This document shows positions 22,581 through 43,715 of a DNA stretch of 64,000 bases, in pieces. The translations under genes were made by a program, and so were the position numbers. Within the stretch, counting starts at the first letter, position 1. Every line of letters starts with the position of its first letter. Source of the DNA: an uncultured Candidatus Saccharibacteria bacterium (lineage in GTDB: Bacteria > Patescibacteriota > Doudnabacteria > UBA920); the NCBI GenBank assembly GCA_964474825.1, contig CAYYWQ010000001.1, forward strand, positions 165,609-229,608. Direction: 5' to 3'. A model generated the notes under the pieces. It worked only from the letters and a program-made list of their open reading frames with translations. It was not told the origin of the DNA and ran no database searches.

Positions 22581-22595
22581 AATAATATTATAGTT

Positions 22596-24344: not shown

Positions 24345-24396
24345 TGTTAGGGAACTTTTTAATGCCGAGGTGGCCGTTGCGACAAAGACGGTTTTT

Positions 24397-25961: not shown

Positions 25962-26000
25962 AAAGGAGATTATGTAAGATTTATAAATTTAAAACCAGCC
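25962..26000 (-). terminator. Intrinsic terminator after the ligase-like gene (gcctcaagg-gaaa-ccttgaggc + T-run on the minus strand)
   Basis: Perfect 9-bp stem. Confidence 0.6.
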
Positions 26001-26642: not shown

Positions 26643-26864
26643 ACTCCCTCCTTGGTATAACCAGAAACGGAGGGATTTAATAAAAGTTACGAATAAAAAA
26701 GCACAAAGATTGTCTTTGCGCGAAGTTTATGCAAAATTTTTTCAAACCACTTCCCAAACTAATTATAAAATAACAAACTTGGGAGGTGGGCTGAAATACA
26801 ACAGGAGTTGTAGTAGCCCGGTCTTGAATTCAAATCCACTCAACTTGTTGGAACTGGCTGGAAG

Positions 26865-27398
26865 TTACTGCTGGGCGATGATCTTTCTGGACTCGCTCAT
26901 GTTTTTGCTGAGCTCAGGTGCGAGCTCAAAGCTTTTAGAGAGGGAGCTAATATGGCTTTCTAATGCTTTGCCCTCGTCTTCGAATTCTCGGAGCTTTTCG
27001 TAAAACAGAGGATCCTTACTTTTTGGTATGAGGTTAGCCCTCGCCTCAAGGATTTTTCTGTGGGAGTTCAGGAACTTGAGTTTCGTCTGATGGTAAGTCC
27101 CCAAGACATTCGCTAGTCTTATGTAGGCCTTCCTGACTTCACGCTGGGCGATTGTTCCTTCGTACCAATCGTCGATTTTTTTTGCCTGAGCTAGTTTTGC
27201 CTTTAGTATGTCCAAGGCGTAGTCGGAAAAGCCGGCGGCGACCTGGCAGTCTCTGGCAAACGTCTCCAGCCTGTCCTTCTCTACTTCTAGGGCGGCTTGC
27301 CAGTCTTTTTTTCTCTCGGCGGTTGCGGTGGTGCTGGCGCTCAGGAAGATCGCCAACAAAATAAGAGAGTGGATTAAATTTTTCATGGCTTTCCTCAA
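26865..27398 (-). CDS. Secreted hypothetical protein (signal peptide; helical)
   Basis: N-terminal LILLAIFLSASTTATA signal. Confidence 0.45.
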   Translation of the reverse strand: MRKAMKNLIHSLILLAIFLSASTTATAERKKDWQAALEVEKDRLETFARDCQVAAGFSDYALDILKAKLAQAKKIDDWYEGTIAQREVRKAYIRLANVLGTYHQTKLKFLNSHRKILEARANLIPKSKDPLFYEKLREFEDEGKALESHISSLSKSFELAPELSKNMSESRKIIAQQ

Positions 27399-27523
27399 AA
27401 GGAACTAGGCGCCTAAAAAGCCGCGCAAATCCCTTCAAAGAAAACCCTGTATTATACCCCCTAAAAAATATGCTTTAGTATATCAAAAAGCCCGGGAAAG
27501 TCCAGGCTTAGTTTTATAAAATA

Positions 27524-27892
27524 TTAGTTATTGTTACTCCACCAATTTGGCCTGCTTAAGTCTTTTGTTTTAATTCCTTTCGCTAGACAATAGGGAATAT
27601 AAGGCAAAACATCTGCGAGTAAATGTAAAATAATTAAAGGCGGAAATTTTGTCCAATTACCAAAGTCTTGGTGAATGCAAACAAGCTCGCCTTCATCTAC
27701 AGCATGAATGTGTTTAAAATAAGCACGGGAACGATAGCTGTTGGTTGGGTGGGAAAAATTATACTCTTTTTTAAATAAATTTTTTACAGCCTCAAAATCT
27801 GCCGGCTTAACCCAAATAAAATATCTGTCTAATGGCTTAATGTCCAGCATCTTCCTTTCCCAAAAATAATTCCAAAGTTCTGTTTCTTTCAT
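27524..27892 (-). CDS. Hypothetical protein downstream of the KAP NTPase gene
   Basis: ORF only. Confidence 0.4.
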   Translation of the reverse strand: MKETELWNYFWERKMLDIKPLDRYFIWVKPADFEAVKNLFKKEYNFSHPTNSYRSRAYFKHIHAVDEGELVCIHQDFGNWTKFPPLIILHLLADVLPYIPYCLAKGIKTKDLSRPNWWSNNN

Positions 27893-27974
27893 GTTCTAAA
27901 TTCTAATTGGAGTAAAAAACGGGCCATGTCCCTATTTGTTTTTCCTTGTTGATCATTCATGAAAGTTTATATGA

Positions 27975-30900
27975 TTATGGAAGAGATATGTTGCTATTTT
28001 CATCAAATTCTTTTTCCTGCTCTACGCCAAAGAACGCATATTTTATTTTGCCCTTCTTAGAGATTCCTTCATCTGGGTCTCCTCCAATTCTATTTGTCAG
28101 CTGAATTGTAAGCGTACCGTTTACAATAGATTTATTTAGCTGTTCTGTAATATCAATAATTTTTTCAGAATGGGTGCCATAAGTTGCTTTTACTATCTTA
28201 AACTTGTCTTTAGCCCCAAGATTTTTCAACAATGTTTTGCCTGTTAGTCGCTCACTCGACCCCTCAGGATTTTGATAAAGCTCTAAACCATATTGTTCAA
28301 TTTCACTAATAAATGAAGTCTTTTTTTCGAACAAAAGTTTATGTGCAAATAAAATATTAACCAAACTTTCCTTTTGTGGTAATGGTGTCTTTTTTAGTAT
28401 TTCAAATAGCTTTCTAGGTAAACCTTCTTTCCTGCTCTTGGGGATGTTTTGAATAACATTCCCACTTTGAAGGTAGCCTGAAATTTTGTTTTTCACCTCT
28501 TGGGATTCGCCATCATTATCAAGAATTGCTAGCCATACATCTAATAACTTTTCCTTGTGCTCATCACTCAATAGATTATATGAAGGAATGAGAAAACTGT
28601 GAGTTAAAAATCGCTGATCTAAATCTGTAAAACTAGCCGACCATTCTAAAAGCTTATCAAATATTCCATCTAAGAAACCATCATTTAGTTGTGATCGAAT
28701 TAACTCTATCTTTTGTAAAGCGAAGCGAATATTAACAAAATCTTTGGACTCGATTATAATTTGTTTTAAGCCCTCCAAATACAAGGTCTTCTTTTTGCTT
28801 GCATCAATACCGTTCAAGCCTTCTAACAGGAGAGTTTTTTGACCTTCGTCAACACTTGGTTGCAAGACTCTTTCAACTATAGATCTTTTTAAATCAGTTA
28901 CAAATTCTACTTTTTCTTCAGCAAATTTTAATAACAAACTCTTTATATCTTGGAATTCGTTACTTGAAGAAATTTGTTGTTCATAGACTTTTTTAAAATC
29001 ATCTTTGGCTGTTTCTGAAGCCTGCGAGAGTTTATTTATAAGGTTAACAATATCAAGCTTTAGCTTTTGTGGTATTACTGGATTGTTAATATATAAAATA
29101 TAATGGGGGGCTACTACCTCATAATAATCTTTTGTTATTTTTTCTTCCTTAATTATATTAATATAAAAATTAAGTACCGCTTCCTTTCCAGGGTTCCATT
29201 CTGGAATTTTGGGATTTGTAATAAATCCATTTAAGTTATTTAATAATTGGGCAATTTGCTTTTTGCTTAAAAATGGTATTATCTGAGAATTAACTTGCAA
29301 AGTTTTAGTACTCAACTCATCCAATGAACTAGGGTCGTTAGTGATAGTATTTAGACCATAAATAAGTTGGTCTATAAAACCTTCGCTAATAAATGATTTG
29401 GTGACTGTTTTGTTGGCTAGCAATAGTAAAGAAGTGTCTAAAACAGAAACCTTAAGATTATTATCTTGATAATATCGATAAATTAAATCTGAGATTTTTG
29501 TTTTGATTTGGGAAGTAAGTATGTCAACATTTTTGGAATAGGTCTCAATGATCTTGTTAAGTACCACTTTAGGATCATCACTCTCCAAAACTTTTGAATG
29601 CTCATCAAGGATTAGATCGCGCTGAGTAAATTGAGTTTTTGTATTACCGTTCAAGACTTTAAAAAGACTTTCGGATTTATAAGAACCTGCTTTAGCAAGA
29701 TGTGGAGTTTTGGCCGCTGATTGTGTAAATGCGTCTGCCAGTTTAGCTTTATATCCATCTGGAATTAAATCAAATATGGATAGAACCATATTTAAAATAT
29801 TGAAAACAGAAGCAAATTTATTTTGTCTTTGCTCTTGATTCAAGAGCGAACTAATTTGCTGAACTATATTTTGTTTCTCCTGCTCATTCGACTTTTTAAT
29901 TGTACTTAAGACAGACTCTTCTCTACCACTAATCAAAGAAATTTTAAGTTCCGAGCTTACGCCTAATACCCCGGCATAACCCTCTCTTTTTAAATTTATG
30001 AATTGTTCAAGCTTTAAAGATTGATATGGCCTTGATGCTTGTAGAAAATCAGAAAGGTTCTGGTCTTCAAGTTGCTTTTTTATCTCCTTTATTTTAGGTC
30101 CGTCTTCTGTACCGTTTCTCAAGTAAGTATCTGCGACTTGAAGGGCATCGGAATCATCAAGAAGAACTTTAAAGAAATTTGGCCATTCTTCTTGTAAGAT
30201 AATTAATTTGGATAAAAATGTGAGGTTGTTAGTTACTAGGCCTGTATCAATGTTTCCGAGCTCCTCTTGAGCTAAGGCTAAAAGATAGGTCGTACTTAAA
30301 TTATTGTAAAACTGCTTTATCTTTCTAGGAGTATGAGAAAAAGCATTTAAAACTAAATTGGCAATATTATCTTTTTCCTCATCGTCCTTAAATGGAATTG
30401 CAATCTGACATGAAATCTTGCTAATATACTTTTCTAAATCTCCTTTGAGAAAAGGTGATAAGCGTACTGTAACTTGAAAGAACTTCTTTAAAAAATCTCT
30501 GCTCTGAAGATCTTTTTCATTAGCACCAAGGTCGTCAGTTATAAGACCTTTTTTTAAATGATTCAATAGTGCCCCTTCGTCTACAGGAACAATATAAAGG
30601 CATCCATCGATATTTAAAAAAGTTTTTATTGTGCCTAATAATTCAATTGCTATTTCATTTGTGCACCTATCAAGATTATCAATTACGATAACGATTTTTT
30701 TAAACTTTTTCTTTGCAGTACTAACATATCTTTTAAAGACTTCCTCAAATTGCTCATCAGAAAATAAAGGACTATTTTCTTCGACCCAGTCTTTGACTTT
30801 AATCAAATTTTTAAGACCACTAACACCTCTAGATAAAATTGTTGCTAAGGAACTTGGCACTAATACTAAAACAATTTTATAAAACCATTCAATATTATAG

Positions 30901-31406
30901 TTAAATTGCCACAAGAACGAGGCTGCTAAAATAATCAAATACCAAAAGATAAACTGTAAAACCAAATTTTTTACTTCTTCTTTATCCCAGTATAAGTTGT
31001 AAGACTGTTTTTTTGTTGTTACCGTCGTATAAAAGATTAGTTTTAAATTATCATCAATATCTAAATCTGCTTTCATTTTGGCAAGAAACTGACGATAAAA
31101 AGCATTCTTTTGGTATTTCCAAGCATCAAAATACACGAAGCCAATATCTGATGCAGATTCTTGTAGTCTCTTTCTAAGAAATTTATTAACCAAAGTTGTT
31201 TTTCCAACTCCCCATTTACCCAAAACCCCAACTACAAAAGGCGTCTTAGCCTCCTTTGTAATAGCTTCAAGAGTATCAACATAGTGCTCATACCCAAATT
31301 CATCGAGATCCGAAGGTTCATCAATTAATAGAAGAGATTGGCCTTTTGCAAGAAGGTCTTTAAATTCTTTATCTTTCTTGTTATTCCACCAGCTTGTGAT
31401 GTCCAT
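27975..31406 (-). CDS. KAP-family P-loop NTPase (1143 aa) with TM helices inserted in the NTPase domain
   Basis: Walker A GVLGKWGVGKTT; TM pair LVLQFIFWYLIILAASFLW / IVLVLVPSSLATIL; KAP signature IVIVIDNLDRC. Confidence 0.8.
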   Translation of the reverse strand: MDITSWWNNKKDKEFKDLLAKGQSLLLIDEPSDLDEFGYEHYVDTLEAITKEAKTPFVVGVLGKWGVGKTTLVNKFLRKRLQESASDIGFVYFDAWKYQKNAFYRQFLAKMKADLDIDDNLKLIFYTTVTTKKQSYNLYWDKEEVKNLVLQFIFWYLIILAASFLWQFNYNIEWFYKIVLVLVPSSLATILSRGVSGLKNLIKVKDWVEENSPLFSDEQFEEVFKRYVSTAKKKFKKIVIVIDNLDRCTNEIAIELLGTIKTFLNIDGCLYIVPVDEGALLNHLKKGLITDDLGANEKDLQSRDFLKKFFQVTVRLSPFLKGDLEKYISKISCQIAIPFKDDEEKDNIANLVLNAFSHTPRKIKQFYNNLSTTYLLALAQEELGNIDTGLVTNNLTFLSKLIILQEEWPNFFKVLLDDSDALQVADTYLRNGTEDGPKIKEIKKQLEDQNLSDFLQASRPYQSLKLEQFINLKREGYAGVLGVSSELKISLISGREESVLSTIKKSNEQEKQNIVQQISSLLNQEQRQNKFASVFNILNMVLSIFDLIPDGYKAKLADAFTQSAAKTPHLAKAGSYKSESLFKVLNGNTKTQFTQRDLILDEHSKVLESDDPKVVLNKIIETYSKNVDILTSQIKTKISDLIYRYYQDNNLKVSVLDTSLLLLANKTVTKSFISEGFIDQLIYGLNTITNDPSSLDELSTKTLQVNSQIIPFLSKKQIAQLLNNLNGFITNPKIPEWNPGKEAVLNFYINIIKEEKITKDYYEVVAPHYILYINNPVIPQKLKLDIVNLINKLSQASETAKDDFKKVYEQQISSSNEFQDIKSLLLKFAEEKVEFVTDLKRSIVERVLQPSVDEGQKTLLLEGLNGIDASKKKTLYLEGLKQIIIESKDFVNIRFALQKIELIRSQLNDGFLDGIFDKLLEWSASFTDLDQRFLTHSFLIPSYNLLSDEHKEKLLDVWLAILDNDGESQEVKNKISGYLQSGNVIQNIPKSRKEGLPRKLFEILKKTPLPQKESLVNILFAHKLLFEKKTSFISEIEQYGLELYQNPEGSSERLTGKTLLKNLGAKDKFKIVKATYGTHSEKIIDITEQLNKSIVNGTLTIQLTNRIGGDPDEGISKKGKIKYAFFGVEQEKEFDENSNISLP

Positions 31407-31427
31407 AATTATAATTTATACAAAAGT

Positions 31428-31460
31428 TAGTCCATAGGTATTTTACTCCCAATTAAGCCA
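31428..31460 (-). promoter_or_regulatory. Conserved island promoter, copy 1 (TTGTAA-17-GGAGTAAAAT), upstream of the KAP NTPase gene
   Basis: Same motif at 34916-34947 and 38111-38143. Confidence 0.55.
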
Positions 31461-31866
31461 TTTTACAAAGACCCTTGATATTAAATAATCAAAGCCTATT
31501 TAAGAGTCTGACCACTAACCTGCGAAGATAATATCTCGCAACGGCTGACAGAAAATTTTATCAATTTTAGACTAATCTTGCGGTTTTATTTGTTTGGCTG
31601 ACAATGCAAGCTTTGCATATGCCACATCATCGTGAAAATCGTATTTAGCATGTTTATTTTTTGCAAACAAACGAGTGAGGATATCCATCCTTAGCAATTC
31701 ATTAGCTTCTCTTTTTGTCATACCTGAAACGTGAGCAGGCAAATATTCTAAAGGATAGTGTATGCCGCAGGCTTTGGAAAACAAAAAGGGGACATGACCC
31801 ATTTAAAAACGCCGCATGGCGTTTTTTTGTGTGCACCTAGGTTGCGCTTATGGGAGGAGTAGGGGA

Positions 31867-32151
31867 CTAGTTTATAAATTCTTTTAGCATTTGTTTTACG
31901 GTGGTTTTTCCTTTTGTTGTTTTAAAATAAGCTTCTCTTCTTAGGGCGTCTTGTTTGTTGGGAAAAGCTTCGTAAAAAATTAGTTCCAACGGCCGGCGGT
32001 TTTTGGTCGAAACATTTTTACCCATATTATGGTCATAAACTCTTTGTTTTAAGTCATCGGAATAGCCAATATAAAACAGCCCGTCTTTGAGGCTGCGGAG
32101 GATGTAGACATAATGAAATTTTATAGACATAAGTTTATGATTAATCTTCAT
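31867..32151 (-). CDS. GIY-YIG nuclease-domain protein (small, UPF0213/YhbQ-like)
   Basis: YVYILRSLKDGLFYIGYSDDLKQRVYDHN...RRPLELIFYE. Confidence 0.75.
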   Translation of the reverse strand: MKINHKLMSIKFHYVYILRSLKDGLFYIGYSDDLKQRVYDHNMGKNVSTKNRRPLELIFYEAFPNKQDALRREAYFKTTKGKTTVKQMLKEFIN

Positions 32152-32159
32152 TAATCATA

Positions 32160-32370
32160 TTGTATCAAAACTATTCGGCCCTGTACTGCTCACGGTTTAT
32201 GGCCGCGCCACGACCCTAAATTGAAAATTTAGGGCTTGACCCGAGCGAACAAGGTACAGCCCTGAACCAGTCGCCATCAAATGGCTCCGGTACAGGGCAC
32301 TCACCACTCTTTAACCTGACGGTTCGCGAGTGGTTCGTGGTGGAGCACATCGAGAGGCTGGCAAAACGTT
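32160..32370. ncRNA. GC-rich structured non-coding region (candidate ncRNA of unknown class)
   Basis: About 57% GC versus about 40% nearby. ccctgtac/gtacaggg long-range complement. Local hairpin ccctaaatt-gaaa-atttaggg. No ORF. Confidence 0.3.
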
Positions 32371-32570
32371 ATTTGGCTTAGTTAAAGAGATTTATTTTTT
32401 GATGGTTACTACAAAAGCTATTGCTTAGATTTTTATTAGAACCATTTTACTTACTATGTAAAGGTTAAACAGGTTTTCTAAATGAGAAAAATACAAATAA
32501 ATTTTTGTTAGACAACAAGCCCTAAAAAAGATATAATAATAAGGTAAAGTAGTCAAAATCCACCGAAATT

Positions 32571-33992
32571 ATGACAGAAAAGCAAACAAAAGAAATAGAA
32601 AGCAATATACTGAAACTAGATAATGTGTTAAAGAAAAAATATACTTCCAAGCTGGAAGTTAATTTTGATTTGAAGAGAACCCTAGTTAGTTTTCAGGCTA
32701 ATAAAATAGAATCTGGGTACCGTTGGTATAAATTTAAAGAAGGGTTCTCGTCATCTCTAGTTAAGTATTGTCTTAAAAAAGCAGGTTTAAAGAAAGGTAA
32801 AATACTTGATCCCTTTGCAGGAAGTGGTACTTCATTGTTTGTTGGTGTTGAGGAAGGACTGGATGCCACAGGAATCGAGTTATTGCCCATAGGTCGTGAA
32901 ATTATAAAAGCCAGAGAATTCGCATTACAGACAGATAAAGAAAAACTAAGGTCCATAATAGCAGATTGGATAAAGAATAAGCCTTGGAAAGACCCCAAGA
33001 TAAAAGCCAAGCACTTAAAGTATTTAAATATTACTAAGGATGCTTTTCCCGATGAGACCGAGGTTGAGCTAGGTAGATATCTAACATATTGTGAAAAATT
33101 AAAGGACAAAGACCTGTCTCAGTTTTTTAGATTTGCTGCATTATGTATTTTAGAAGAAATTAGTTATACACGAAAAGATGGTCAATATTTAAGATGGGAT
33201 CACAGGTCACGTAGAACTAATGGCAGTAAAATTTTCAACAAAGGATTAATAAAAACCTTTGACCAGGCTATTAGTTCAAAGTTAGACCAAATTTGTATAG
33301 ATTTAAATAAAGAAGAAATTGATTTATTTTCAAAGGTTGGAAATAAAGAAATCGGAAGCATAGAATTGCTTGAAGGATCTTGTTTAGATGTTCTCCCTAA
33401 GCTTAAAGCTAAGAGCTATGACTTTGTTATGACTTCTCCACCTTATTGCAATAGATACGATTACACTCGTACCTATGCTTTAGAATTAGCCTTACTTGAG
33501 GTAGAAGAACAGGAATTGAAAGATTTAAGACAGACAATGCTTTCCTGTACAGTTGAAAATAGAGAAAAGAGTGATTTGAAAAATAAATTTTCTAGAGAGG
33601 TTTTTGAAGAAGCTTCAAAGGCATTTGATTCTCAAAAGCTCTTAAAATCTATACTAGATTATCTAGAGATATTAAAAAAAGAAAAAAAGCTCAATAACAC
33701 TGGGATCGTCAGAATGATCCGTAACTATTTTTATGAAACAAGCTTAGTAATATTTGAATGCTCCAGAATTCTGAAATCTGGTGGATACTTTTTCATGGTC
33801 AATGATAATGTTAGGTATGCCAGTATAAACATTCCTGTTGATCTTATTTCTTCAGAATTTGCCAAAGCAGCCGGATTCAATGTAGAAAAAATATGGGTCT
33901 TACCAATAGGAAAAGGCAATAGTAGCCAACAAATGGGACTACATGGAAGAGAGGAATTGAGAAAATGTGTCTACGTCTGGCGCAAAATCTAA
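32571..33992 (+). CDS. DNA methyltransferase (N4-cytosine or N6-adenine; alpha-class motif order I then IV)
   Basis: SAM motif I ILDPFAGSGTS; catalytic motif IV TSPPY. Confidence 0.8.
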   Translation: MTEKQTKEIESNILKLDNVLKKKYTSKLEVNFDLKRTLVSFQANKIESGYRWYKFKEGFSSSLVKYCLKKAGLKKGKILDPFAGSGTSLFVGVEEGLDATGIELLPIGREIIKAREFALQTDKEKLRSIIADWIKNKPWKDPKIKAKHLKYLNITKDAFPDETEVELGRYLTYCEKLKDKDLSQFFRFAALCILEEISYTRKDGQYLRWDHRSRRTNGSKIFNKGLIKTFDQAISSKLDQICIDLNKEEIDLFSKVGNKEIGSIELLEGSCLDVLPKLKAKSYDFVMTSPPYCNRYDYTRTYALELALLEVEEQELKDLRQTMLSCTVENREKSDLKNKFSREVFEEASKAFDSQKLLKSILDYLEILKKEKKLNNTGIVRMIRNYFYETSLVIFECSRILKSGGYFFMVNDNVRYASINIPVDLISSEFAKAAGFNVEKIWVLPIGKGNSSQQMGLHGREELRKCVYVWRKI

Positions 33993-34888
33993 AGAGAAAT
34001 TAGCCAGGATATTAAGCCCTCAAACTGAGTATCAGAATTTAGATTAGCTGCACAAGCTAGTCTTTTTTCTTGTAGCTGGTTGTAAATCTCTACTGCCATA
34101 GCATTCTCAATTGCAGCACCTACGAAAAATAATTTAGGCTTATTTTTATTATCTTCAAAGACTTTTCTAATTCTGTCTAAAGCACTATTGGCCGTTTTCC
34201 AATGTTCATCTGCTCCAGCAGGGTCAATTCCTCCCTTTAATTCACCACACGCAAGATAACGATTCTTATCATTAAAAATGTCTTTAGTGATTTTAGTTAA
34301 GCCTGTTGTGTCGAGTAGAATTGCATCAATATTTTTACCAATTAGAGCAGGCTTGAAATCAAAAACCAAAAATCTTTTTGGCCAAGTAAGGCTTTGAACT
34401 TTCCCAGAATCACTTGCTTTAGCTTCGAGTTCAATCTTCTTTGCTTTCAATTTTTTTACTATAGCACCAGCTAATTTGTTACCTGCTAATGCCCCAGTCT
34501 TATTCCTTGAAATACCTCCTAATGTATCGCCCTTGGTAAGTAAGTATCTATACACAAGCTCTTGAGTAAAATTGTCTCCGGCAGTAATTTGATATTTATT
34601 TAAAGCCTCTTTTAAGGCTGCCTTTAAGTCTTCCTCAGAAAGGTGATTAATGGCTTTATCAGAAAACCCAACCGCAGCAATTAACTCCAGTCTATGATGC
34701 GAAAAAAACTCAGGTTTGAAAATATCCTCAATAGTTTTTACTTTTGATAATCCTTCTTTAAATGTCTCTGCTTTTACTAAGTAAGGATGAGCACTGCTTT
34801 CTTTAAAAAGTGCTTGCGTTAAAAACCCCTTCCTTACATTGTACGGGGAAGTAACCAAATCCTCTGGCTTATCAATTGAGTCAGTCAT
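33989..34888 (-). CDS. Putative Type II restriction endonuclease, convergent and overlapping stop codons with the methyltransferase
   Basis: Tail-to-tail 4-bp overlap with the MTase, typical R-M arrangement; no recognisable family. Confidence 0.45.
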   Translation of the reverse strand: MTDSIDKPEDLVTSPYNVRKGFLTQALFKESSAHPYLVKAETFKEGLSKVKTIEDIFKPEFFSHHRLELIAAVGFSDKAINHLSEEDLKAALKEALNKYQITAGDNFTQELVYRYLLTKGDTLGGISRNKTGALAGNKLAGAIVKKLKAKKIELEAKASDSGKVQSLTWPKRFLVFDFKPALIGKNIDAILLDTTGLTKITKDIFNDKNRYLACGELKGGIDPAGADEHWKTANSALDRIRKVFEDNKNKPKLFFVGAAIENAMAVEIYNQLQEKRLACAANLNSDTQFEGLISWLISL

Positions 34889-34915
34889 TCTATATAATTA
34901 AGCTAAATAATTATC

Positions 34916-34947
34916 TGTATTTTACTCCTTAGCAACGGACTTGGCAA
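34916..34947 (-). promoter_or_regulatory. Conserved island promoter, copy 2 (TTGCCA-17-GGAGTAAAAT), upstream of the restriction gene
   Basis: Motif match. Confidence 0.55.
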
Positions 34948-35021
34948 GAAAAAGGCTTATAAATATAAGCAAACAGTTTGCCAAATCAATACCCTCAAGC
35001 TGACTAAGTTTCTCAAACTCG

Positions 35022-36899
35022 CTATTTCCATTTATCAATTAGGGTCATTGTTTCGTTCCTTGGTGCATATTTCTTTTCTATTTCCCCAATATCAACTACA
35101 ACAGGGACTTGTGCCAGTAAGCCTGCAAGTATACAAGTTCCCGTGGGTAAAATTGGTATGTAGTCAAAAGACACCTTATCCAAAAAAGAAATAGTCTTTT
35201 CGACAGCCTTTATGTCTTCTTGGTTAATTAGTCTGTGTAGGAAGTAATTATGAAGTTGAGAAATTATTGTTTGAGAAATATCTGAAGGTCTCTGGCTAGC
35301 AATAGTTAGGAATACCCCAAATTTTCTCCCTTCTTTTATTATTTCTTCAAAAGTTTCTAATCGATAATCTTTCCATTGTTCACTTTCTCTTTCTGAATCG
35401 TCGGATAAGATATTATGAGCCTCGTCGATAATAATGTTTAGGAAAGTGTTATCGTGTTTTTTCTTTTTTTCATTATATAAGCTCTTGCAAAGAAGCAATG
35501 GAAGTATTTTTCTAATATGGATATCTTCAACGTCTTTAAATGATACAATGGTTATATTTGGTTTTATATTGTTTGAATCTTGTGTTTGAACATCTTTAAC
35601 TTCAATAACCTTTTCTAATTCAGGGTATCTGCTATCCATTCTTTTAATTAAAGGAGATAAGTGCTCACGGTTTGCATGACCTTTAATAATATCGTCATAA
35701 TATTTTATAACAACCTTTAATCTAATAAGATTTATACTTGAATGGTTAAATTCTAGTTCGTCAATAATTCCTTTTAAAGGTTGAAGAATGTCCGTATTAA
35801 TACCTTCTTGACCATATTGATCAGTTGCCCCAATGTTCATATAAGAGCCTGTGGTTCCATTGAAGCCTAATTTTTCACTAAGAATATTTTTTGCATCTTC
35901 AAGCTTTTCGAAATTATTTACGCTAGTATATAAATCAGAAAATAATTCTATAAAAATTTTTGATCCCAAATTTTTATCTTTTTTATCAATCGTTTCTTTT
36001 ACCATCGAATACAATTTCGTTCTTAAGTTAGCATTAAAATTATCTCCTTCAAAGATTCTTTTCAAAGCACGGCTTGTCATAACGCTTCTCAAAAAGGGAG
36101 TTTGTGTTTTTTCAGTTGCCTCCAAATATATAGCCCAAAATATGGGATCGTTTAAAGTCTCTTCCGATACAGGAAATTTTTTACTTTCTTGACCTAACCT
36201 CGTTGAAAGTTTATAAATGTTTTTATATTTTTCTTCTACTATCCCATTTGGGTGATCGTATTCCCCATTAAAATCAACTAAGAAAAATTGAGCCTTTTTC
36301 TTAAAGCCATTGTTGTCTTTATATTTTTCAAAAAGTTCGTGGTAAATTTTTGCTAAGGTATAGGATTTACCACTGCCAGTATTTCCGAATATACCGATAT
36401 GACTTGCAAAAAGACTATTGATACCCACTCCTATACGCTGTCCTTTTTCAAGCGACAGCACACCAATATATATAGGTTCGTCAGTTCCTTTTATGAAATT
36501 ATGGACTTGGTCAAATTCATCTTTTTCCAACAAATAGCATTCATTATCAATCAAGGGGAGCTCTTTTATACCTCTTTCAAAATTTTGCCCCTCAAAAAAT
36601 CCTAACAAGCTAATGCTTAGAGTCCTGCTAATTTTATCTCCTTCATTTTTATAACTCTTTTCTGCAAACTGTTTATCTTCAGTGACAAACTCACCGTCAA
36701 CTTTTCCAATAATTTTTATAAAACCTTTTGCTATTTTAACGTACCCTCCGACTGATATGTTTTTTAAAAGCTCCCCTCTATATAAAAGATTTGAGGAGTT
36801 TTTACTTTTATCAACCTTTACTTTTATCACCCTGCCTTCAACAGAGATGACCTTTCCTATTTTAAAAATAGAATCTTTTAATAGAGAGTCGTCGTTCAT
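35022..36899 (-). CDS. HerA-like (DUF87) ATPase, partner of the SIR2 protein
   Basis: Walker A GNTGSGKS; Walker B IIIDEAHNIL; 625 aa. Confidence 0.75.
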   Translation of the reverse strand: MNDDSLLKDSIFKIGKVISVEGRVIKVKVDKSKNSSNLLYRGELLKNISVGGYVKIAKGFIKIIGKVDGEFVTEDKQFAEKSYKNEGDKISRTLSISLLGFFEGQNFERGIKELPLIDNECYLLEKDEFDQVHNFIKGTDEPIYIGVLSLEKGQRIGVGINSLFASHIGIFGNTGSGKSYTLAKIYHELFEKYKDNNGFKKKAQFFLVDFNGEYDHPNGIVEEKYKNIYKLSTRLGQESKKFPVSEETLNDPIFWAIYLEATEKTQTPFLRSVMTSRALKRIFEGDNFNANLRTKLYSMVKETIDKKDKNLGSKIFIELFSDLYTSVNNFEKLEDAKNILSEKLGFNGTTGSYMNIGATDQYGQEGINTDILQPLKGIIDELEFNHSSINLIRLKVVIKYYDDIIKGHANREHLSPLIKRMDSRYPELEKVIEVKDVQTQDSNNIKPNITIVSFKDVEDIHIRKILPLLLCKSLYNEKKKKHDNTFLNIIIDEAHNILSDDSERESEQWKDYRLETFEEIIKEGRKFGVFLTIASQRPSDISQTIISQLHNYFLHRLINQEDIKAVEKTISFLDKVSFDYIPILPTGTCILAGLLAQVPVVVDIGEIEKKYAPRNETMTLIDKWK

Positions 36900-36911
36900 G
36901 AGGATTTTACA

Positions 36912-38072
36912 TTAGTCCGAAATCTTTTTAACAATTTTGCTAAATATTTCTTTGTCAATATTTTGTAAATTCAATTCAAACATATCTTCTTTCTTCCCTT
37001 GAAGCCTAGCTATTAGAGAGCCGGCTTTTTGGGGAGGAGTTAAAATATGAATATTATTGTTTTTGATTTTATCAAAATCAATAATTTTTCTAAGCGTCTT
37101 TTCTGTGTTTGTAGAATGAGCGAGAATAAAAATTCTCAATGTTGGGTTAGAATCCGCAGCCCTTAACGTAAGCGCTCTTATATGCTGGTCTCTAAAGGAA
37201 AAACCCATAACAAATAAAACGGTGTTTTCTTTTTCTAACTCGTTTGAGTAAGACCTTAGCAATCCATAATAGGTTTCATTAAGAACTGTATCCTTTAATT
37301 TTGCTTCTGTAGGGTTAACAATGGCAAAATCTTTGTAGCTTGCCATAAATTGTTTAATTTCGTCAATACATTTTAGGCCATTAGATTTTTTTATTAAATC
37401 TTGTTCCTTATCTTTTTTGTCGATAGTAATAATTTTATCTTTTGGAATTTTGATCTCATTTAATTTTTTAATAAGTTCTAAATTCGATGAAAATTTTATT
37501 TCCTTATTTTCGATTTGCCAAGTTAAAGATCCGTGCATTTTTAACACATTAAATACTGGTATCTCCGAGGTGTTGTCGTAATAAAGACTTTTTTTAAAAT
37601 AAGATTTTTTAAAATTACCTAGATTAAAAGCAGGTTTAAATCTGCCACAGAAACCATCATTAAATTCAAGGCCACTTTCCTCTAAACTTTTTTCTAAAAA
37701 TAAATCAATATTGGTTGTAAACAAATTTGCCTGTTTGCAAAAAATATTTTTTCTTTTTAATAACAAAGTGTTTATAGATGTTAAAAAGTTTCTATAATTT
37801 TGTAAGACTTCATTTGGTTCATTTTCATTTTGTAGAATCCCGACATTTTTTGAAATTACTCCGTCAAAGTAGTGTTTGTAAAGCGATGACGTGATAATCT
37901 CTTTTTGTTCGGCTTCAACTATTTGGTTTTTATTCTCTTCAAAAATCCCAAGTAAATTTTCTATATTTTCTAGGCAATCTAAATACGGTCTCGACATCCC
38001 AGCCCCAATTAAAAAGTTTATGTTTGCACTTTCTATTACACTTTGTATTTCGTCTAGGTTATGTGTATCCAT
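36912..38072 (-). CDS. SIR2-like (SIR2_2 family) NADase-domain protein of a SIR2-HerA defence pair
   Basis: NFLIGAGMSRP, FTTNIDLFLE (TTNYD-like) and KMHGSL motifs. Confidence 0.7.
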   Translation of the reverse strand: MDTHNLDEIQSVIESANINFLIGAGMSRPYLDCLENIENLLGIFEENKNQIVEAEQKEIITSSLYKHYFDGVISKNVGILQNENEPNEVLQNYRNFLTSINTLLLKRKNIFCKQANLFTTNIDLFLEKSLEESGLEFNDGFCGRFKPAFNLGNFKKSYFKKSLYYDNTSEIPVFNVLKMHGSLTWQIENKEIKFSSNLELIKKLNEIKIPKDKIITIDKKDKEQDLIKKSNGLKCIDEIKQFMASYKDFAIVNPTEAKLKDTVLNETYYGLLRSYSNELEKENTVLFVMGFSFRDQHIRALTLRAADSNPTLRIFILAHSTNTEKTLRKIIDFDKIKNNNIHILTPPQKAGSLIARLQGKKEDMFELNLQNIDKEIFSKIVKKISD

Positions 38073-38110
38073 AAATAGGCAGATTAACAGATCAAAAAGT
38101 AACTATGCAT

Positions 38111-38143
38111 GTATTTTACTCCTATCTAAGCGGTTTTACAAAG
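38111..38143 (-). promoter_or_regulatory. Conserved island promoter, copy 3 (TTGTAA-17-GGAGTAAAAT), upstream of SIR2-HerA
   Basis: Motif match. Confidence 0.55.
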
Positions 38144-38487
38144 GGGGTGGATTCCGATATAATTTAAATAACAACTGAATAAAGTAGCCTAAACCACTAG
38201 TAATATTGGCATGGCGAAAAAAACCACAGAAATGTAAAGACGGTCACCTGTCTTGTCTTAACCATTTCTGTGGTCACTATCCGAAAGGGTAGCGGGGCAA
38301 GCGGGTGGCCTTTTTTGATTCCCGTAGAAAGGTTAAAAATATGTGCTTTAGTCCGTTCGATAATACTTGGCATTTTGTATACTTGATTGTTTGGACTGTT
38401 ATTTGGACAATCATTGGGTACGGACTTCGTAAGTCAGAAAAAGGTGGCAGCTTTTAGCTGTCCTTTTTAATTGCTAAGTTATTTTAT

Positions 38488-38952
38488 ATGTCCCTACATT
38501 CAAACAAAAAAGATTTTGTGTGTCCGAAATGTTCAATAATATTTATTCCTTACAAAGCTACTTTTGAATGTCCTAAGTGTGGCTATACAGGAAAGACCCC
38601 TGATGAGTATTTGGATTTTGTTGATATTTGTGCAATATCGTTAAAAAATAACAAACAAGAGTTTGGTTCATTCATTCCTCCAGTATGGTATAGTGGTTGC
38701 TACTCTGACCGAATACAAAGTGATATTTTTAAATTGTTTGCAATAGTAGAAGCACAGAAGCTTGCTGATATCAAAAGTTTTGTTGATGAAACAATGAAGG
38801 GGGCTGGTATGGATGCTGATATGCAAACACAATTAAAAAATATTTTCTTTGAAGTAAAAATTGCTTATGACAAACTACCTAAAATAAAAATAACTACTTT
38901 TTCAAAATTTAAAGATCGATTAAGAAAAAAACTTAAAACTTGGTTACCTTAG
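38488..38952 (+). CDS. Hypothetical Zn-ribbon protein (CPKC...CPKC)
   Basis: Two CxxC pairs near the N-terminus. Confidence 0.45.
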   Translation: MSLHSNKKDFVCPKCSIIFIPYKATFECPKCGYTGKTPDEYLDFVDICAISLKNNKQEFGSFIPPVWYSGCYSDRIQSDIFKLFAIVEAQKLADIKSFVDETMKGAGMDADMQTQLKNIFFEVKIAYDKLPKIKITTFSKFKDRLRKKLKTWLP

Positions 38953-39006
38953 TTTTTAAAACAAACTTTAAGCATTGGCTTTTTGTGTGAGTGCCGAAAA
39001 AACAAA

Positions 39007-39348
39007 ATGGAAAAGCGAAGAGGAATATTTAGCAAAGAAGAAGCTGACTCAGCTCCTCGTAAACCCGGAGTGTATTTTATATATTCCAATAAATTTATTC
39101 ATCGAGTGATTGGAAAAAGTAAAATAGTTTATATTGGTGTGGCAAGATCAAATTTATTTAGAAGGATAGTCGGGCCTAGAGAGGCCCTGCCTAGATTTAT
39201 TAGACTTGAAAAAAATGGCCATAAGCTAACATTCAAAATAATTAAAAAATGCCGAACTAAAAGGCAAGCCAAGAGATTAGAAAAAAGAGAGTTAAAAAAA
39301 TTTGAAGAAAAACATTTAGAATTACCCTGCTTAAATCACAGTTCTTAA
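39007..39348 (+). CDS. GIY-YIG-like domain protein (second copy in the island)
   Basis: GVYFIYSN...IVYIGVARSN...R; basic C-terminus. Confidence 0.5.
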   Translation: MEKRRGIFSKEEADSAPRKPGVYFIYSNKFIHRVIGKSKIVYIGVARSNLFRRIVGPREALPRFIRLEKNGHKLTFKIIKKCRTKRQAKRLEKRELKKFEEKHLELPCLNHSS

Positions 39349-39521
39349 AGCTAGGTAAACAGTTCCTATTTCGGCCAAAACTGACAAATTTGGCTTGTTT
39401 TAGCTACCCAGCTAGATAACTATAACCTGGCTATTTGCGTGCTATAGCGAGCCGTTTTACTGCCGAGTTTGTTAAAATGGTGTAAAATAAAAGAAGATTT
39501 GAGCATTAATTCAAATACACC

Positions 39522-40028
39522 ATGCTTCCAGAAATAACAAAAAGTGATAGTCGAAGATCCATCACTTTTAAAGAGTTTATCGAAATAGGTAATAAAAAAA
39601 ATTATAGTTCTGAAGAGGAATGGAAAAAATCTCGTGGGTTTAGTGAGGAAGGAATGAATACCGAACTATCTGGGGCATTTAAAGTCAGCGATGACGGGAC
39701 AGAATCTTGGGTTTGTAGAAACAACAACTGCCGAGAGATTCTTGTAAAAGATGTTAATGGTATGAGGGCAATGGTTAGAGCGCTGGGTAATGTTGATGTT
39801 TATGTTAAGTATGAAGAGATGGCAGCTTATTGCCCCAAGTGCCAAACGTTTAATGATTTAATGGACAATACTTATTGGACGGATGCTATGGCCGATTTTG
39901 AAAATGGGCAACAAAAACCGCTAACTACTTTATTTATTCAAGATGAGCAACGTGCAAGTGAGCAGGCTCAAATAGACAAAGTGCAAAAAAGGAGTATCGT
40001 AAAATCCTACCTACTAAAATTAAAATGA
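39522..40028 (+). CDS. Hypothetical protein with Cys pairs (CRNNNC...CPKC)
   Basis: ORF only. Confidence 0.4.
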   Translation: MLPEITKSDSRRSITFKEFIEIGNKKNYSSEEEWKKSRGFSEEGMNTELSGAFKVSDDGTESWVCRNNNCREILVKDVNGMRAMVRALGNVDVYVKYEEMAAYCPKCQTFNDLMDNTYWTDAMADFENGQQKPLTTLFIQDEQRASEQAQIDKVQKRSIVKSYLLKLK

Positions 40029-40159
40029 GCCTTGTTGATATCCCTGCTTGACAATTGGTGTAGTAGTGCTAAAATAATAATGTTTTAAAATTGAACATTG
40101 CCAATGTAGCCAATTTACATTGGAAATCCGTCTGCAGGACGGTCTAAAACGGTCAGAAG

Positions 40160-40213
40160 CCCGTACTAACATAAGAGCAATCGCTCGTATGCTGGTACGG
40201 GCTTTTTTTATGT
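40160..40213 (+). terminator. Intrinsic terminator (agcccgtac...gtacgggct + T7)
   Basis: 9-bp stem and T7 run. Confidence 0.6.
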
Positions 40214-40297
40214 CTGAAAACGACTTCAACATTAACCAGCTACCAGAAGAGCTCCAAGAATATATTGGGGTCGTGCTTAGCATAGGAGAGGAATCAA

Positions 40298-40663
40298 ATG
40301 AAGCTACTGCCGAGAAATAACTTTCTAATAATTCCAAATAGGTTAATTGAGGATTATATGAAAAAGCTTAAACCAACCGAATTTAAATTTATGATCGTGT
40401 TGCTTTATTTGTCCCAAAGGTTTTCAACTGACAAGTTTTTTTATACTGACCAACAGATTACTAAAAGATTTGGCATTAGTGCAAACTCACTAAACCGAGC
40501 CAGGATGAGGCTGGAAGAATTAGACCTTATTAAGTACCGGAGTGGATTTCGTACACAAAAATTTTCTAGAGCTACCAGATATAAAATATTTCCAAGTAAA
40601 GCTATACGAAAATTATTTAGAATTCGTAGTATCCAAAAAGAGATACTACTGAAACCTCCATAG
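40298..40663 (+). CDS. Putative winged-HTH DNA-binding protein (replication-initiator/regulator-like)
   Basis: The segment 'ITKRFGISANSLNRARMRLEELDLIKY' looks like a helix-turn-helix. Confidence 0.4.
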   Translation: MKLLPRNNFLIIPNRLIEDYMKKLKPTEFKFMIVLLYLSQRFSTDKFFYTDQQITKRFGISANSLNRARMRLEELDLIKYRSGFRTQKFSRATRYKIFPSKAIRKLFRIRSIQKEILLKPP

Positions 40664-40755
40664 TATACCAAAAAGGGAGGTTAATTAAGAAGTAAAGTAA
40701 CTATTAAATAAGAATAATAATTAATTTAAACCCTAAAGGGTTTATATGTAACTAT

Positions 40756-41205
40756 ATGATTAATAAATCAACTGATAATAAATCTATAATATGTGATTTT
40801 AAAAAGCATCTGCTGACTATAACTGATAAGAAGCTCCACAATGTTCAGACCATAGTCCAGTTTTATTTCTGGATTAAAAAGCTGGACAAAAAGTATGAGC
40901 CATTCAAAAGACACGTTAGGGCCGCTAAGAAAATTGATGTCTGGGCTAAGTCAGATCTGGACAAGGCTTATAACCTAATAATTGACCTTGGTGTCTTTAT
41001 GGACAACAAGGGATTGGATTATACCTTGGACACCATACATCGGAATATACCTAAATACGAATCTGGAAGCCTGGATAACGACGAGGTGCAAGAGCTTAAG
41101 GATGCTTTAGAGTTTGAACGTAAGCGCACTGAGCAACGGCTGGCTGAGTTCAGAAAAGAGCAGGAGGAGGAAAATAAGAAAAAAGGTAAACGGAAGAAAA
41201 AATAA
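40756..41205 (+). CDS. Hypothetical protein with Lys-rich C-terminus
   Basis: ORF only. Confidence 0.4.
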   Translation: MINKSTDNKSIICDFKKHLLTITDKKLHNVQTIVQFYFWIKKLDKKYEPFKRHVRAAKKIDVWAKSDLDKAYNLIIDLGVFMDNKGLDYTLDTIHRNIPKYESGSLDNDEVQELKDALEFERKRTEQRLAEFRKEQEEENKKKGKRKKK

Positions 41206-41220
41206 TTAATTACAACAACC

Positions 41221-41466
41221 ATGACTAAAAACAATAAACCTACAATAAAGAATTCTTCAAAAAAAGCACCAGCTGTTCATATACAAGATCTTGAATCCTT
41301 GGGTTCTAGTTTAAAAAAAGGGGGTAAAGAGCCGATGATGATAAGGGTGGGTAATGTTAAATATGACCTTGGTGTGAGTTACATAATGGTTGAAGATCAG
41401 TGGCTAGAAGAAGATATATTGGATTTGATTAGCAAATTCAAAAAACGGTACGGTAATGGCAAATAG
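41221..41466 (+). CDS. Hypothetical small protein
   Basis: ORF only. Confidence 0.35.
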   Translation: MTKNNKPTIKNSSKKAPAVHIQDLESLGSSLKKGGKEPMMIRVGNVKYDLGVSYIMVEDQWLEEDILDLISKFKKRYGNGK

Positions 41467-41688
41467 CCTGTAAGCTTGGGGAGGCACTTAAAGTTAGTAC
41501 CTCCCCAAGACGGCTATACATCTCATTTTTTAAGCTAGGTCGTTAATAATCAAATCAATCAATCAATCCAGCTAGGCATTTGAAAACCGTCGAATGTCGA
41601 CCTTTCCTTAGACTTTAGGCCTTTGTATCTTATAATCAAAATAACATAACTTTACATAACATAACCAATGTAAAATCACCATAAAAAT

Positions 41689-43158
41689 ATGGCCAACAGC
41701 AATATAATAAAGCCTAATAATAAATTTCTTGCCTATGTCAGGGTTAGCAGTAAAGACCAGTCCCGTGGCACCAGCCTTGATGAGCAAAAAGCCCGTATCA
41801 TGCAATATGCCCATGACAAGGGGTTTGAAATTATAAAATTTTACGGTGAGGTTGAATCGGCTTCAAAAGCAGGCAGAGAGATTTTTCAAGATATGACAGA
41901 GCAGTTAAAAAAAGAAAAATTGGCTGGCATTATATTTCACAAAGTAGACAGGTCATCTCGTAACCCAAAAGATTCAGCCGAACTCTACCAGCTTATGATG
42001 GAAGGGTATCAGTTGCACTTTGCAGACGGTGGATACTCAACCAATGACCCTACAGGCCGAACTATGATTTATATTATGTGGGGCATAGCCAGTAGCTACA
42101 GTGAAAATTTGGCAGCAGAAATTAATAAGGGAATTTTAGGAAGATTAAAACAAGGGCGTTATCCTGGACCTGTTCCTTTGGGTTACAAAAAAGCAGAGGA
42201 CTGTAAAGCCGTACTGGATCCACAGAAAGCCCCACTGGTCAAAAGAATGTTTCAGGAATATGCCACAGGCAAGTATTCCATAGAAACTATGAAAAAAATA
42301 ACAAAAGAGTTTGGCCTGACAAATAGAAATGGTTGCTACTTGGGTATTAATCCGATTCACGGAATGTTAAGGGAAACTTTTTACTATGGCCTTATTACTC
42401 ACAAGCGAGGTACGTTTCAGGGAGAGCACCCACCTTTAATTACCAAAGCTTTATTTGATAAGGTTCAGTTTATGCTACACGACAGGGGCTTTAAAATTGA
42501 GCACCACCACAAATATATATTTCAAGGGCTGATGAAGTGTTATGTATGTGGCAAAATACTTAAAGCTATGACTGCAAAAAGGAATCATCGTTACTACCTG
42601 TGCAGGAATAGGTCTTGTGGAATTAAAACTATTTCGGAAAAAGTAGTTGAGGATCAATTTGTTGAGAAGCTAAAAGAATTGGAATTCAGCCCCGAAGAAG
42701 CCGAAGGGTTTAAAAAAGCCGTCCTAAGTTTTAGAAGGACAGCAGAACGGTCAAAGGACGAACAAATTAAAGCCTTGGACCTGGAGCTATCAGCGATTGA
42801 TTCAAGGCTAAGTGAATTATTGCAGAAGTATATTGATAAAAGGATTGACGATGAAACCTACAGCAAGACCAGAGAAGCCTTGTTAAACAGGCAAATAGAG
42901 CACAAAGAAGCCCGTACAGCACTGGAAACAACAGATGAAAAGGCCTTTGACGAAATAACCGAGTTGGTCAAACTGCTAATAAACCCAAGCATAGCCTATA
43001 GAAAAAGCACTGATCCAATAAATCAGCGCCGTCTCGTAATGTCTATGGTGGCAAACCTTGAGCTAAACGGTAAAGTACTTATAGTTAAGTGGAAAAAACA
43101 CTTTGATTTGATCGCTAGACGACCAAAACTAAATTATGGTGGAGATGCCGGGAGTTAA
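41689..43158 (+). mobile_element. Large serine recombinase (phage-type integrase) gene
   Basis: Catalytic region YVRVSSKDQ...SLDEQ...IIFHKVDRSSRN; recombinase domain; Zn-ribbon CYVCGK...CRNRSC; C-terminal coiled coil. Confidence 0.85.
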
Positions 43159-43715
43159 ACCCGGGTCCAAAACTTCTCAACTTTTCCATTGTTCACAAGA
43201 TTAGTCAGCTCATAAACTTTAACGACAGGAGCTGACCAGATATCGCCAAAGGTGATTTACTTAGCTTAGGCTAACCTGCGCAAATCAACCAGGTTAACTG
43301 CAGCCCCAATAAACTTGCTGGACCGTGGTCGGGGCGGACCGCGGGGCAAGGCATTAACTTAAAATTAAGCTAATACAGGTTGTAACTGGGCGTTTTGAAA
43401 CGCGGCTACTACCTTGTTCCAAGCTGTTGTAGCATTTGGATTTGATTACGGCATTTTTACGAGTGAGTAATCATTCTCGTCTTGCATATAGAAAAATGTT
43501 AAAGTCCTGTCAAAATCCGTCATCCCCAGTATGACAACCTTGCAATTGTTCGCTGTCTTACAGACTAAACCATTACAAAGTATTTTCCTAAGGGTGCCCA
43601 CAAATAGAGCGTTTTGCATAACCTACAGCTCACAAAGGAGGTTTGCAAGGTTGCTCTACTGGGCATCCCCACAGGAAGACTATTTTACCACAAAAATGCG
43701 TTGTGGACAAGTGCT

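Follow-up and report, generated by a model that had tools for sequence, protein, structure and literature searches.

A predicted integrative element at the 3′ tip of a Patescibacteria tmRNA gene, with its attachment site inside the recombinase reading frame

Where does an integrated element end when its recombinase gene runs into a host RNA gene? The question arises in a 64,000-nt stretch of contig CAYYWQ010000001.1 (here the window, numbered from its first letter) from an uncultured Candidatus Saccharibacteria bacterium, in which six small plus-strand open reading frames (ORFs) are followed by a gene for a large serine recombinase (LSR). A sequence-only reading of the window had proposed one composite integrated element, spanning either 25.4-43.9 or 27.5-43.9 kb, with att sites that could not be identified by eye. 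The six ORFs and the 489-aa LSR are where that reading placed them, and a recombinase-driven backbone with defence cargo at its left stands; the extent does not, and a KAP-NTPase/GIY-YIG segment (27.9-32.3 kb) falls outside. The att sites are identifiable through comparison with relatives, and we conclude that positions 32338-43144 probably constitute an ~10.8-kb integrative element in a candidate phyla radiation (CPR)/Patescibacteria genome, inserted by the LSR at the 3′ tip of a transfer-messenger RNA (tmRNA) gene. The tmRNA gene had been overlooked, as had the LOOT RNA and a 66-aa ORF described below.

Limits and target of the element

The host tmRNA gene (ssrA; 43137-43527, minus strand) is intact, being identified by ARAGORN and matching Rfam at 112.7 bits over its full length (1-374), and the final 22 nt of the LSR ORF lie within its 3′ end. 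The reverse complement of its last 8 nt (the antisense of CUCCACCA) is the 8-bp core TGGTGGAG, of which just two direct-orientation copies, both on the plus strand, occur in the island region. The near-end copy (43137-43144) coincides with the final 8 nt of the tmRNA gene itself, in an attL-type arrangement of element P′ arm, core, and tmRNA; the far-end copy (32338-32345) is a displaced copy of the tmRNA 3′ tip, in an attR-type arrangement of host flank, core, and element P arm. Each end holds one core copy, so the mature tmRNA sequence is unchanged. The junction at 32338 aligns with a tandem-island junction at locus L052 of a close relative, and window 32338-32397, from the core onward, matches the far end of the L052 island (L052 2525-2584) at 79% identity. 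We set the limits of the element at 32338 and 43144 because of the direct core repeats and this match; the right end is thus the tmRNA 3′ tip rather than a point near 43.9 kb. As judged from the two junctions, the crossover is within the 8-bp core. The predicted attP junction of the excised circle is ...AAACTAAATTATGGTGGAGCACATCGAGAGG... (as a 40-mer, ACCAAAACTAAATTATGGTGGAGCACATCGAGAGGCTGGC), and the predicted empty attB is ...GAGTGGTTCGTGGTGGAGATGCCGGGAG... (as a 40-mer, CGCGAGTGGTTCGTGGTGGAGATGCCGGGAGTTAAACCC). Searches by blastn-short and ungapped scans found no long displaced tmRNA 3′ fragment, of the kind associated with tyrosine-integrase islands, in the window or in 14 related loci. 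A 9-mer, TCGCTAGAC, present at 27580 and 43112, was considered as a repeat and attributed to chance, having the wrong orientation and counts at expectation.

Comparison with related genomes, the check that the sequence-only reading had itself put forward, revealed insertion polymorphism at this site. Two metagenome contigs of relatives (L060 and L073), neither of which has an island at this site, align to a virtual island-deleted version of the window to the left and to the right of the junction, at 81% identity in the flank encoding a 94-aa GIY-YIG protein and 68% in the core and tmRNA. In the close relative (L052/L055), whose LSR is 85% identical and whose right flank is likewise ArsR/SdpI, window segments 38134-41209 and 41524-43265 share 81-85% DNA identity with L052, whereas the cargo at the same site is different, encoding an SMC/AAA_21 protein. 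A second island lies further left in L052/L055, with a split LSR, a Prim-Pol/AAA_25 gene, a restriction-modification (R-M) system, and a reverse transcriptase, and at the inter-island junction the C-terminal coding sequence of the second LSR runs into TGGTGGAG. The element has three parts: a short left end with the last 27 recombinase codons, a variable cargo bay, and a conserved backbone.

The arrangement extends beyond these close relatives. In a set of 47 genome loci with LSR homologues, all 15 of those adjacent to a tRNA or tmRNA gene (window included) are convergent with it, the LSR ORF reading 20-83 nt into the RNA gene; a sixteenth case is L009, where the LSR reads into a tRNA and the contig stops inside that tRNA. 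The targets of the LSR family are tmRNA, tRNA-Glu, tRNA-Asn, and tRNA-Gln, and public protein records agree, with C-termini that are antisense T-arm peptides such as GSATGNRTPI. Probing a metagenome collection with this tmRNA 3′ end yielded 26 loci (L056-L081), of which one has the same LSR family, at least nine have a second family (~540 aa), and at least four a third, the second and third families each entering that tmRNA tip in one of the two remaining frames (with Pfam confirmation for one each). Three of the 26 look empty, with a terminator hairpin. Islands from different LSR families share the same 8-bp core in tandem arrays; in L069, a 6.9-kb second-family (group-B) island (4171-11131) has this core at both bounds and abuts the end of a third-family LSR. 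The tmRNA tip is a shared hotspot for at least three LSR families, and tandem arrays there are common.

One locus, L163, with a 58% identical LSR and SmpB adjoining the tmRNA, has a 16-nt end repeat, TGGTGGAGATGGGCGG (1647-1662 and 11198-11213), rather than one of 8, and its cargo includes dehydrogenases and a PLD-like protein.

The recombinase and its divided gene

The product of 41689-43158 (plus strand), 489 aa in its integrated, truncated form, is a large serine recombinase by all sequence criteria tested, as the sequence-only reading had proposed. It has the Pfam domains Resolvase (PF00239, 5.6e-24), Recombinase (PF07508, 5.2e-14), and Zn_ribbon_recom (PF13408, 3.2e-9), and we collected 301 homologues. 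The catalytic-domain residues R18, V19, S20, Q24, R63, D87, R88, and R91 and the zinc ligands C284, C305, and C310 are invariant in 32 homologues, with C287 nearly so. The coiled coil is seen in an AlphaFold2 (AF2) model of a family member, P0030 rather than the window protein, as paired long helices (342-389 and 395-420). That the enzyme catalyzes recombination between attP and attB is predicted from the junctions described above.

The attP site lies inside the recombinase ORF, at conserved Gly-Gly codons. When the ends of the element are joined as in an excised circle, the LSR frame stays open through the core and on into the left end, encoding 512 aa that end GG-AHREAGKTLFGLVKEIYFLMVTTKAIA, with the tail GGAHREAGKTLFGLVKEIYF...; in the integrated form, it encodes 489 aa ending GG-DAGS, the codons for D-A-G-S and the stop being read from antisense tmRNA. 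The severed 3′ portion of the gene doubles as the attP P arm and is at 32339-32428 (plus strand), where it encodes GG-AHREAGKTLFGLVKEIYFLMVTTKAIA and a stop codon, in frame with the LSR solely in the excised circle. Integration thus swaps a 27-aa, clade-conserved C-terminal helix for four antisense-tmRNA codons, and the predicted recombinase protein is different in the integrated and excised states, as follows directly from the sequence.

Equivalent tails are encoded at other far-end junctions. In the reconstruction from the L052/L055 junction, the L052 tail is GGAGREAGQTISALVRDVYF, and two junctions in L164 give GGADRLYRKTFLALVNDIYF and GGAQRVTWQTMISNIITYF. In L008, a 3-kb contig with a 44% identical LSR, the tail GGANREQWKTLLIKIYRFF is contiguous with the ORF and has TGGTGGAG inside it. 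The tail frame is the only one open at all five sites, and tail substitutions are more frequent at synonymous (0.45-0.69 per site) than at non-synonymous positions (0.24-0.32), giving a ratio of non-synonymous to synonymous change (pN/pS) of 0.4-0.7 over 18 codons. The tail motif, GGAxRDxxRTL...L..YF, is contiguous at the C-terminus of many homologues of 31-40% identity from Proteobacteria and Acidobacteriota, and in the P0030 model (mean predicted local distance difference test score [pLDDT], 89.3) the tail is an ordered helix (493-510, pLDDT 74-86) that follows the last strands of the zinc-ribbon domain. The tail is an ancestral structural element of the recombinase clade, and because the crossover falls in the Gly-Gly codons of the members that target tRNA and tmRNA genes, integration detaches the helix. 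We considered whether the proteobacterial and acidobacterial homologues might be attP-form copies, and rejected this: the tmRNA-tip sequence is absent from their Gly-Gly codons, and none of them adjoins a tRNA.

Two further loci show other configurations. L164 has two far-end junctions, each with core and tail-coding P arm, within 199-2720; their left flanks are similar, and the ~2.5 kb between them carries HSP20, proC, and tRNA_bind genes and no recombinase. The bracketed segment could be a cassette without a recombinase, or what is left of a tandem island. In L053, a 71% identical LSR ends in GGHCIKKL, and the sequence after TGGTGGA (9240-9264) contains neither tmRNA nor a tail-coding arm.

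We propose that this integration-dependent truncation would change the activity or stability of the recombinase and so help to set the direction or stability of integration. Several observations weigh against the element and its divided gene working in this way. The conservation of the tail may partly reflect constraint on the P arm as DNA, and the codon statistics come from just 18 codons. A scan of the att sites for dyad symmetry gave no signal above random, and the crossover dinucleotide is not placed within the core. The tandem arrays in L055 and L069 imply pairings outside the canonical LSR repertoire, of attP with attL or attR, and we identified no recombination directionality factor. 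The low-GC segment at 27.9-32.3 kb adjoins the element, and the host side of the far junction may therefore be older mobile DNA. Finally, neither an excised form nor an empty site was found for the same strain: in the source samples (SRR14271365/72/73), where circle junctions were sought via contigs with the leftmost cargo gene, both public same-sample contigs that span the left junction are integrated. What comes closest to an excised form is the L008 ORF, in attP form with the core inside, on a 3-kb fragment from another organism.

These last findings bear on the best surviving alternative, that the island is a fixed, immobile remnant whose recombinase was inactivated by truncation and which is retained just for its defence genes. 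The integrated recombinase does lack the clade-conserved helix, the contigs found in three samples are all of the integrated form, and recombinases are degraded in relatives, the LSR being split in the second island of L055 and shortened in L006. We nevertheless think this unlikely. The ORF is intact and keeps all of the invariant catalytic and zinc-ligand residues; both att junctions are intact, as is the detached tail ORF, which is in frame; and against the 85% relative the backbone is conserved but the cargo replaced, a contrast that points to recent mobility of the family.

Backbone, cargo, and left flank

In order, the backbone of the element consists of a promoter, the LOOT RNA, a Zn-ribbon protein, a GIY-YIG nuclease-like protein, a Cys-pair protein, a leader hairpin, a RepO/DnaD-like winged helix-turn-helix (wHTH) protein, a Lys-rich protein, a variable small ORF, and the recombinase. 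LOOT (RF03000; 38186-38310, plus strand), the first conserved feature, scores 67.1 bits in Rfam against a gathering threshold of 46.4 and covers the whole model (positions 1-121 of 121). Comparison of seven LOOT copies reveals compensatory helices, and a covariance model built from these seven scores the window copy at 109 bits. Searching 79 sequences (~1.07 Mb) with this model gave 19 hits in 16 of them. Every hit belongs to an LSR locus from CPR/Patescibacteria and, with three exceptions, precedes the LSR gene; the proteobacterial and acidobacterial loci had none. Wherever island limits are known (the window, both L055 islands, L069, and L164), LOOT lies at the boundary between the cargo and the small-gene operon. 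In the searchable literature, which is incomplete, LOOT appears as a metagenome-derived motif, and we found no context or function for it there; as a fixed component of CPR/Patescibacteria islands, this orphan Rfam family, known solely from metagenomes, acquires its first genomic context. In L053, a second, inverted LOOT (18843-18980) lies 9.6 kb downstream, past a GmrSD/ResIII/methylase cluster.

A promoter scan placed a divergent promoter region between cargo and backbone at 38095-38185. On the plus strand, TTTACA-17-TATAAT (38135-38163; 11 of 12 matches) faces LOOT and would start transcription at it; on the minus strand, TTGTAA-17-TAAAAT (38141-38113; 9 of 12 matches) faces the SIR2-HerA genes described below. 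A terminator scan found a terminator-like hairpin (38446-38462) 3′ of LOOT and ahead of the first small gene. LOOT may act as a leader or regulatory RNA of the backbone.

All six small genes are on the plus strand. The first (38488-38952) encodes a 154-aa putative zinc-ribbon protein with two N-terminal CxxC pairs and an 81% identical copy in L055; it has no significant family match, and its Pfam zinc-finger and ribbon scores are sub-threshold. The second (38983-39348) encodes 121 aa from a TTG start, the source record beginning instead at an internal Met (39007) to give 113 aa (P0121). Its similarity to GIY-YIG nucleases, suggested by the sequence-only reading, is sub-threshold in Pfam (20.5 against 22.6 bits), and a sequence-profile search of the PDB gave just a weak match to T4 endonuclease II (E = 0.66). 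In its family of 57 proteins, however, a G-Y / Y-I-G / R / R / E / N set is invariant in 33 homologues, and its AF2 model (pLDDT 82.6) matches the UvrC GIY-YIG domain (Foldseek probability 0.99, TM score 0.46-0.55) and I-TevI, so that motifs, catalytic residues, and fold all place it in the GIY-YIG nuclease superfamily. It is the most widely shared of the small genes.

The third gene (39522-40028) encodes a 168-aa Cys-pair protein without a family match, 83% identical in L055 and 43% in L011. It is followed by a candidate regulatory leader (40048-40204, plus strand) with a strong promoter-like site, TTGACA-16-TAAAAT, and a 22-nt hairpin with a U-run that is conserved in L052; lying upstream of the wHTH gene, this leader resembles a plasmid-style attenuator or countertranscript control region. 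The overlapping 66-aa ORF (40120-40320) more likely reflects this promoter and hairpin leader than a real gene. The wHTH prediction held up: the 121-aa winged-helix protein (40298-40663), 60% identical in L011, resembles the N-terminal domain of DnaD/RepO-type replication initiators and matches PHROGs 186, 270, and 678 (E = 5.7e-9 to 3e-6, the best being 5.7e-9). A 149-aa protein with a Lys-rich C-terminus (40756-41205) is 94% identical in L055 and 46% in L011, with four homologues among 5.8 billion proteins. The 81-aa ORF upstream of the recombinase (41221-41466) occupies a variable slot; it is not conserved with the 85% relative, and the L052 slot holds a 112-aa ORF. L011, in which the 168-aa, wHTH, and 149-aa proteins all recur, has a 41% identical LSR.

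The small proteins had been suggested to form a regulatory or defence module, and a specific form of the second idea is that LOOT and the GIY-YIG protein belong to an RNA-guided nuclease system. In five islands, the GIY-YIG-like gene always follows LOOT, with both order and strand preserved, its catalytic residues are invariant, and the element family carries defence cargo. Against this, none of the six small proteins matches PADLOC, and PADLOC, PHROGs, and Pfam together yielded just two assignments, wHTH and GIY-YIG; LOOT has no evident guide-like variable region; and a sister island has a Prim-Pol/AAA_25 replicase at the equivalent position. A defence module is decidedly improbable. Because the small genes are conserved with the recombinase while the cargo bay varies, lack a defence match, and include an initiator-like wHTH protein, the block is better read as a replication and regulation (maintenance) backbone, which would supply these functions to the excised form. 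We found no iterons, just the hairpin leader, and the initiator-like part is the 121-aa wHTH domain.

The cargo bay of the window holds two systems. A type II R-M pair (32571-34888) consists of a methyltransferase (32571-33992, plus strand; N6_N4_Mtase, 6.3e-9) and a BsoBI-type endonuclease (33989-34888, minus strand; Endonuc-BsobI, 8.4e-80). A SIR2-HerA anti-phage system (35022-38072, minus strand) consists of HerA (35022-36899; PADLOC, 8e-170) and SIR2 (36912-38072; 5.2e-52), with the two genes 12 nt apart on the same strand and Pfam supporting the assignment. Sister islands carry an SMC-like ATPase, a BstXI-type R-M system, a reverse transcriptase, and GmrSD, and the element family therefore carries defence cargo.

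To the left of the element, a segment at 27524-32337 lacks a recombinase and encodes a 1,143-aa KAP-family NTPase (PADLOC PDC-S20/QatA/PifA-like), the 94-aa GIY-YIG protein, and a 122-aa orphan ORF. In the composite element first proposed, reaching from ~25.4 or 27.5 to 43.9 kb, all of the low-GC defence genes (KAP NTPase, GIY-YIG, R-M, and SIR2-HerA) would be cargo. GC content is indeed low and unbroken from ~27.9 to 42 kb (0.29-0.40 across ~28-42 kb, down from ~0.43), so that part of the composition argument is real, although the change noted at ~25.4 kb is not an element boundary. The KAP NTPase matches defence models in PADLOC. A promoter-like 49-nt repeat (76% identical; 31422-31470 and 38095-38143) precedes both the minus-strand KAP NTPase and SIR2-HerA operons, its minus strand holding the TTGTAA-17-TAAAAT site, which suggests a shared cargo promoter. 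The core also occurs in inverted orientation at 27537, close to where the GC content shifts. As an att site, however, we reject this last copy as chance: it is inverted, and such an 8-mer is expected about once per window. The att junction at 32338, internal to the proposed span, matches the far end of a relative's island; the homologue of the 94-aa GIY-YIG protein lies directly beside the tmRNA tip in L060 and L073, which have no island; and the right boundary is the tmRNA tip, beyond which host synteny (ArsR, SdpI) resumes. We regard the composite element as very improbable.

The left boundary of the 27524-32337 segment is near 27.5-27.9 kb, and the tmRNA hotspot may also account for this segment, as an island that is older or has decayed. 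No exact match to the 94-aa GIY-YIG protein is on record, the public gene call being of 87 aa. Between its gene and the displaced tmRNA tip lies a GC-rich stretch of ~190 nt (32152-32337, minus strand) that folds stably into three hairpin domains (-77.8 kcal/mol, z = -4.69); an Rfam search of the GC-rich flank (31380-32600) gave no match at E <= 1. This stretch is missing in L060 and L073, where a 5′-truncated GIY-YIG homologue is 39 nt from the tmRNA tip. Further left, the host flank (21938-27400) encodes an ECF-type (extracytoplasmic function) sigma factor, a type IV pilin-like protein, and a 213-aa ATP-dependent DNA ligase, and the ORFs at 25409-25948 and 25490-25834, which overlap on opposite strands, are doubtful as genes.

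Least probable of all is a prophage or phage satellite using a serine integrase for lysogeny, for although the integrase architecture is phage-type, the initiator-like gene matches phage protein families, and defence cargo is typical of phage satellites, the element is just 10.8 kb, none of its 13 ORFs encodes a capsid, terminase, portal, or lysis protein (Pfam, PHROGs), and the LSR family is absent from IMG/VR, where its nearest viral relatives are generic LSRs of no more than 28% identity.

Comparison with known systems

Returning to the integrative element and its divided recombinase gene, we offer a wider interpretation tentatively, as possible though doubtful in its entirety. The recombinases may form a CPR-abundant LSR clade with attP in their own ORF, targeting the acceptor/CCA tip of tRNA and tmRNA genes, in which loss of the C-terminal helix on integration and its recovery on excision would be a self-encoded switch of direction or stability, possibly replacing or supplementing a directionality factor, with LOOT as a dedicated regulatory or replication RNA alongside the GIY-YIG protein. 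Large-payload genome engineering relies mainly on serine integrases, whose control of direction between integration and excision is a central question; if true, a recombinase gene severed by the very reaction that its product carries out would add a new mode of direction control. Few bacterial sequences are as conserved as the ends of tmRNA and tRNA genes, and a family that targets them is of interest for the design of broad-host integration tools. The locus also shows anti-phage systems being acquired and exchanged in reduced-genome bacteria, at a tmRNA-tip hotspot with cargo bays that turn over between close relatives.

The element resembles those of the phage and integrative and conjugative element (ICE) large serine integrases (phiC31, Bxb1, A118/LI, TP901-1, and SPbeta SprA) in the three recombinase domains and coiled coil, in the position of the gene at the element end, and in a short crossover core, with no long target duplication. 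To our knowledge, the characterized phage and ICE serine integrases have protein-coding or intergenic targets and an attP outside the int ORF. Here, by contrast, the target is the last 8 nt of tmRNA (and tRNA 3′ ends in relatives), and attP is within the recombinase coding sequence, so that integration changes the protein. We found no precedent for this among serine recombinases in the searchable, incomplete literature, in which we likewise found no description of an LSR crossover at the acceptor/CCA tip, of an LSR association with LOOT, or of serine-recombinase islands in CPR bacteria.

The parallels are with tyrosine recombinases. For Mx8 IntP, attP is inside the int gene, and the prophage and free element encode different proteins. 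With SSV-type integrases, integration splits the integrase gene, such that free and integrated forms again encode different proteins (PMC8371274). The present case differs from Mx8 IntP and the SSV1 type in its recombinase superfamily, and whereas the SSV gene is cut in two, just the last 27 codons are detached here. In the Cluster G, N, and P mycobacteriophages, attP lies in a coding sequence, and integration truncates a C-terminal segment, switching the properties of the protein. There, however, the repressor is truncated and the integrase is of the tyrosine type, while here it is the recombinase itself that is truncated.

Tyrosine-integrase islands at tRNA and tmRNA genes (Williams 2002; Islander/TIGER; tycheposons) likewise target ssrA and tRNA 3′ ends, form tandem arrays, and have cargo bays. 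They use the other recombinase superfamily and duplicate tens of nucleotides of the tRNA 3′ end, rather than the 8 bp seen here, and our element crosses over at the acceptor/CCA tip instead of within the anticodon or T loop. A minority of the 937 tycheposon elements have a large serine recombinase in place of a tyrosine recombinase (10.1101/2020.12.28.424599). In coupling a conserved integration and replication backbone to a hyper-variable defence cargo bay, the element is also like P4-like elements, phage-inducible chromosomal islands (PICIs), and pipolins, the last of which have been described as defence reservoirs at tRNA genes (PMC11551731). It is set apart from them by its unrelated backbone genes, with neither packaging-hijack genes nor PolB, by its CPR host, and by LOOT, which is specific to this group.

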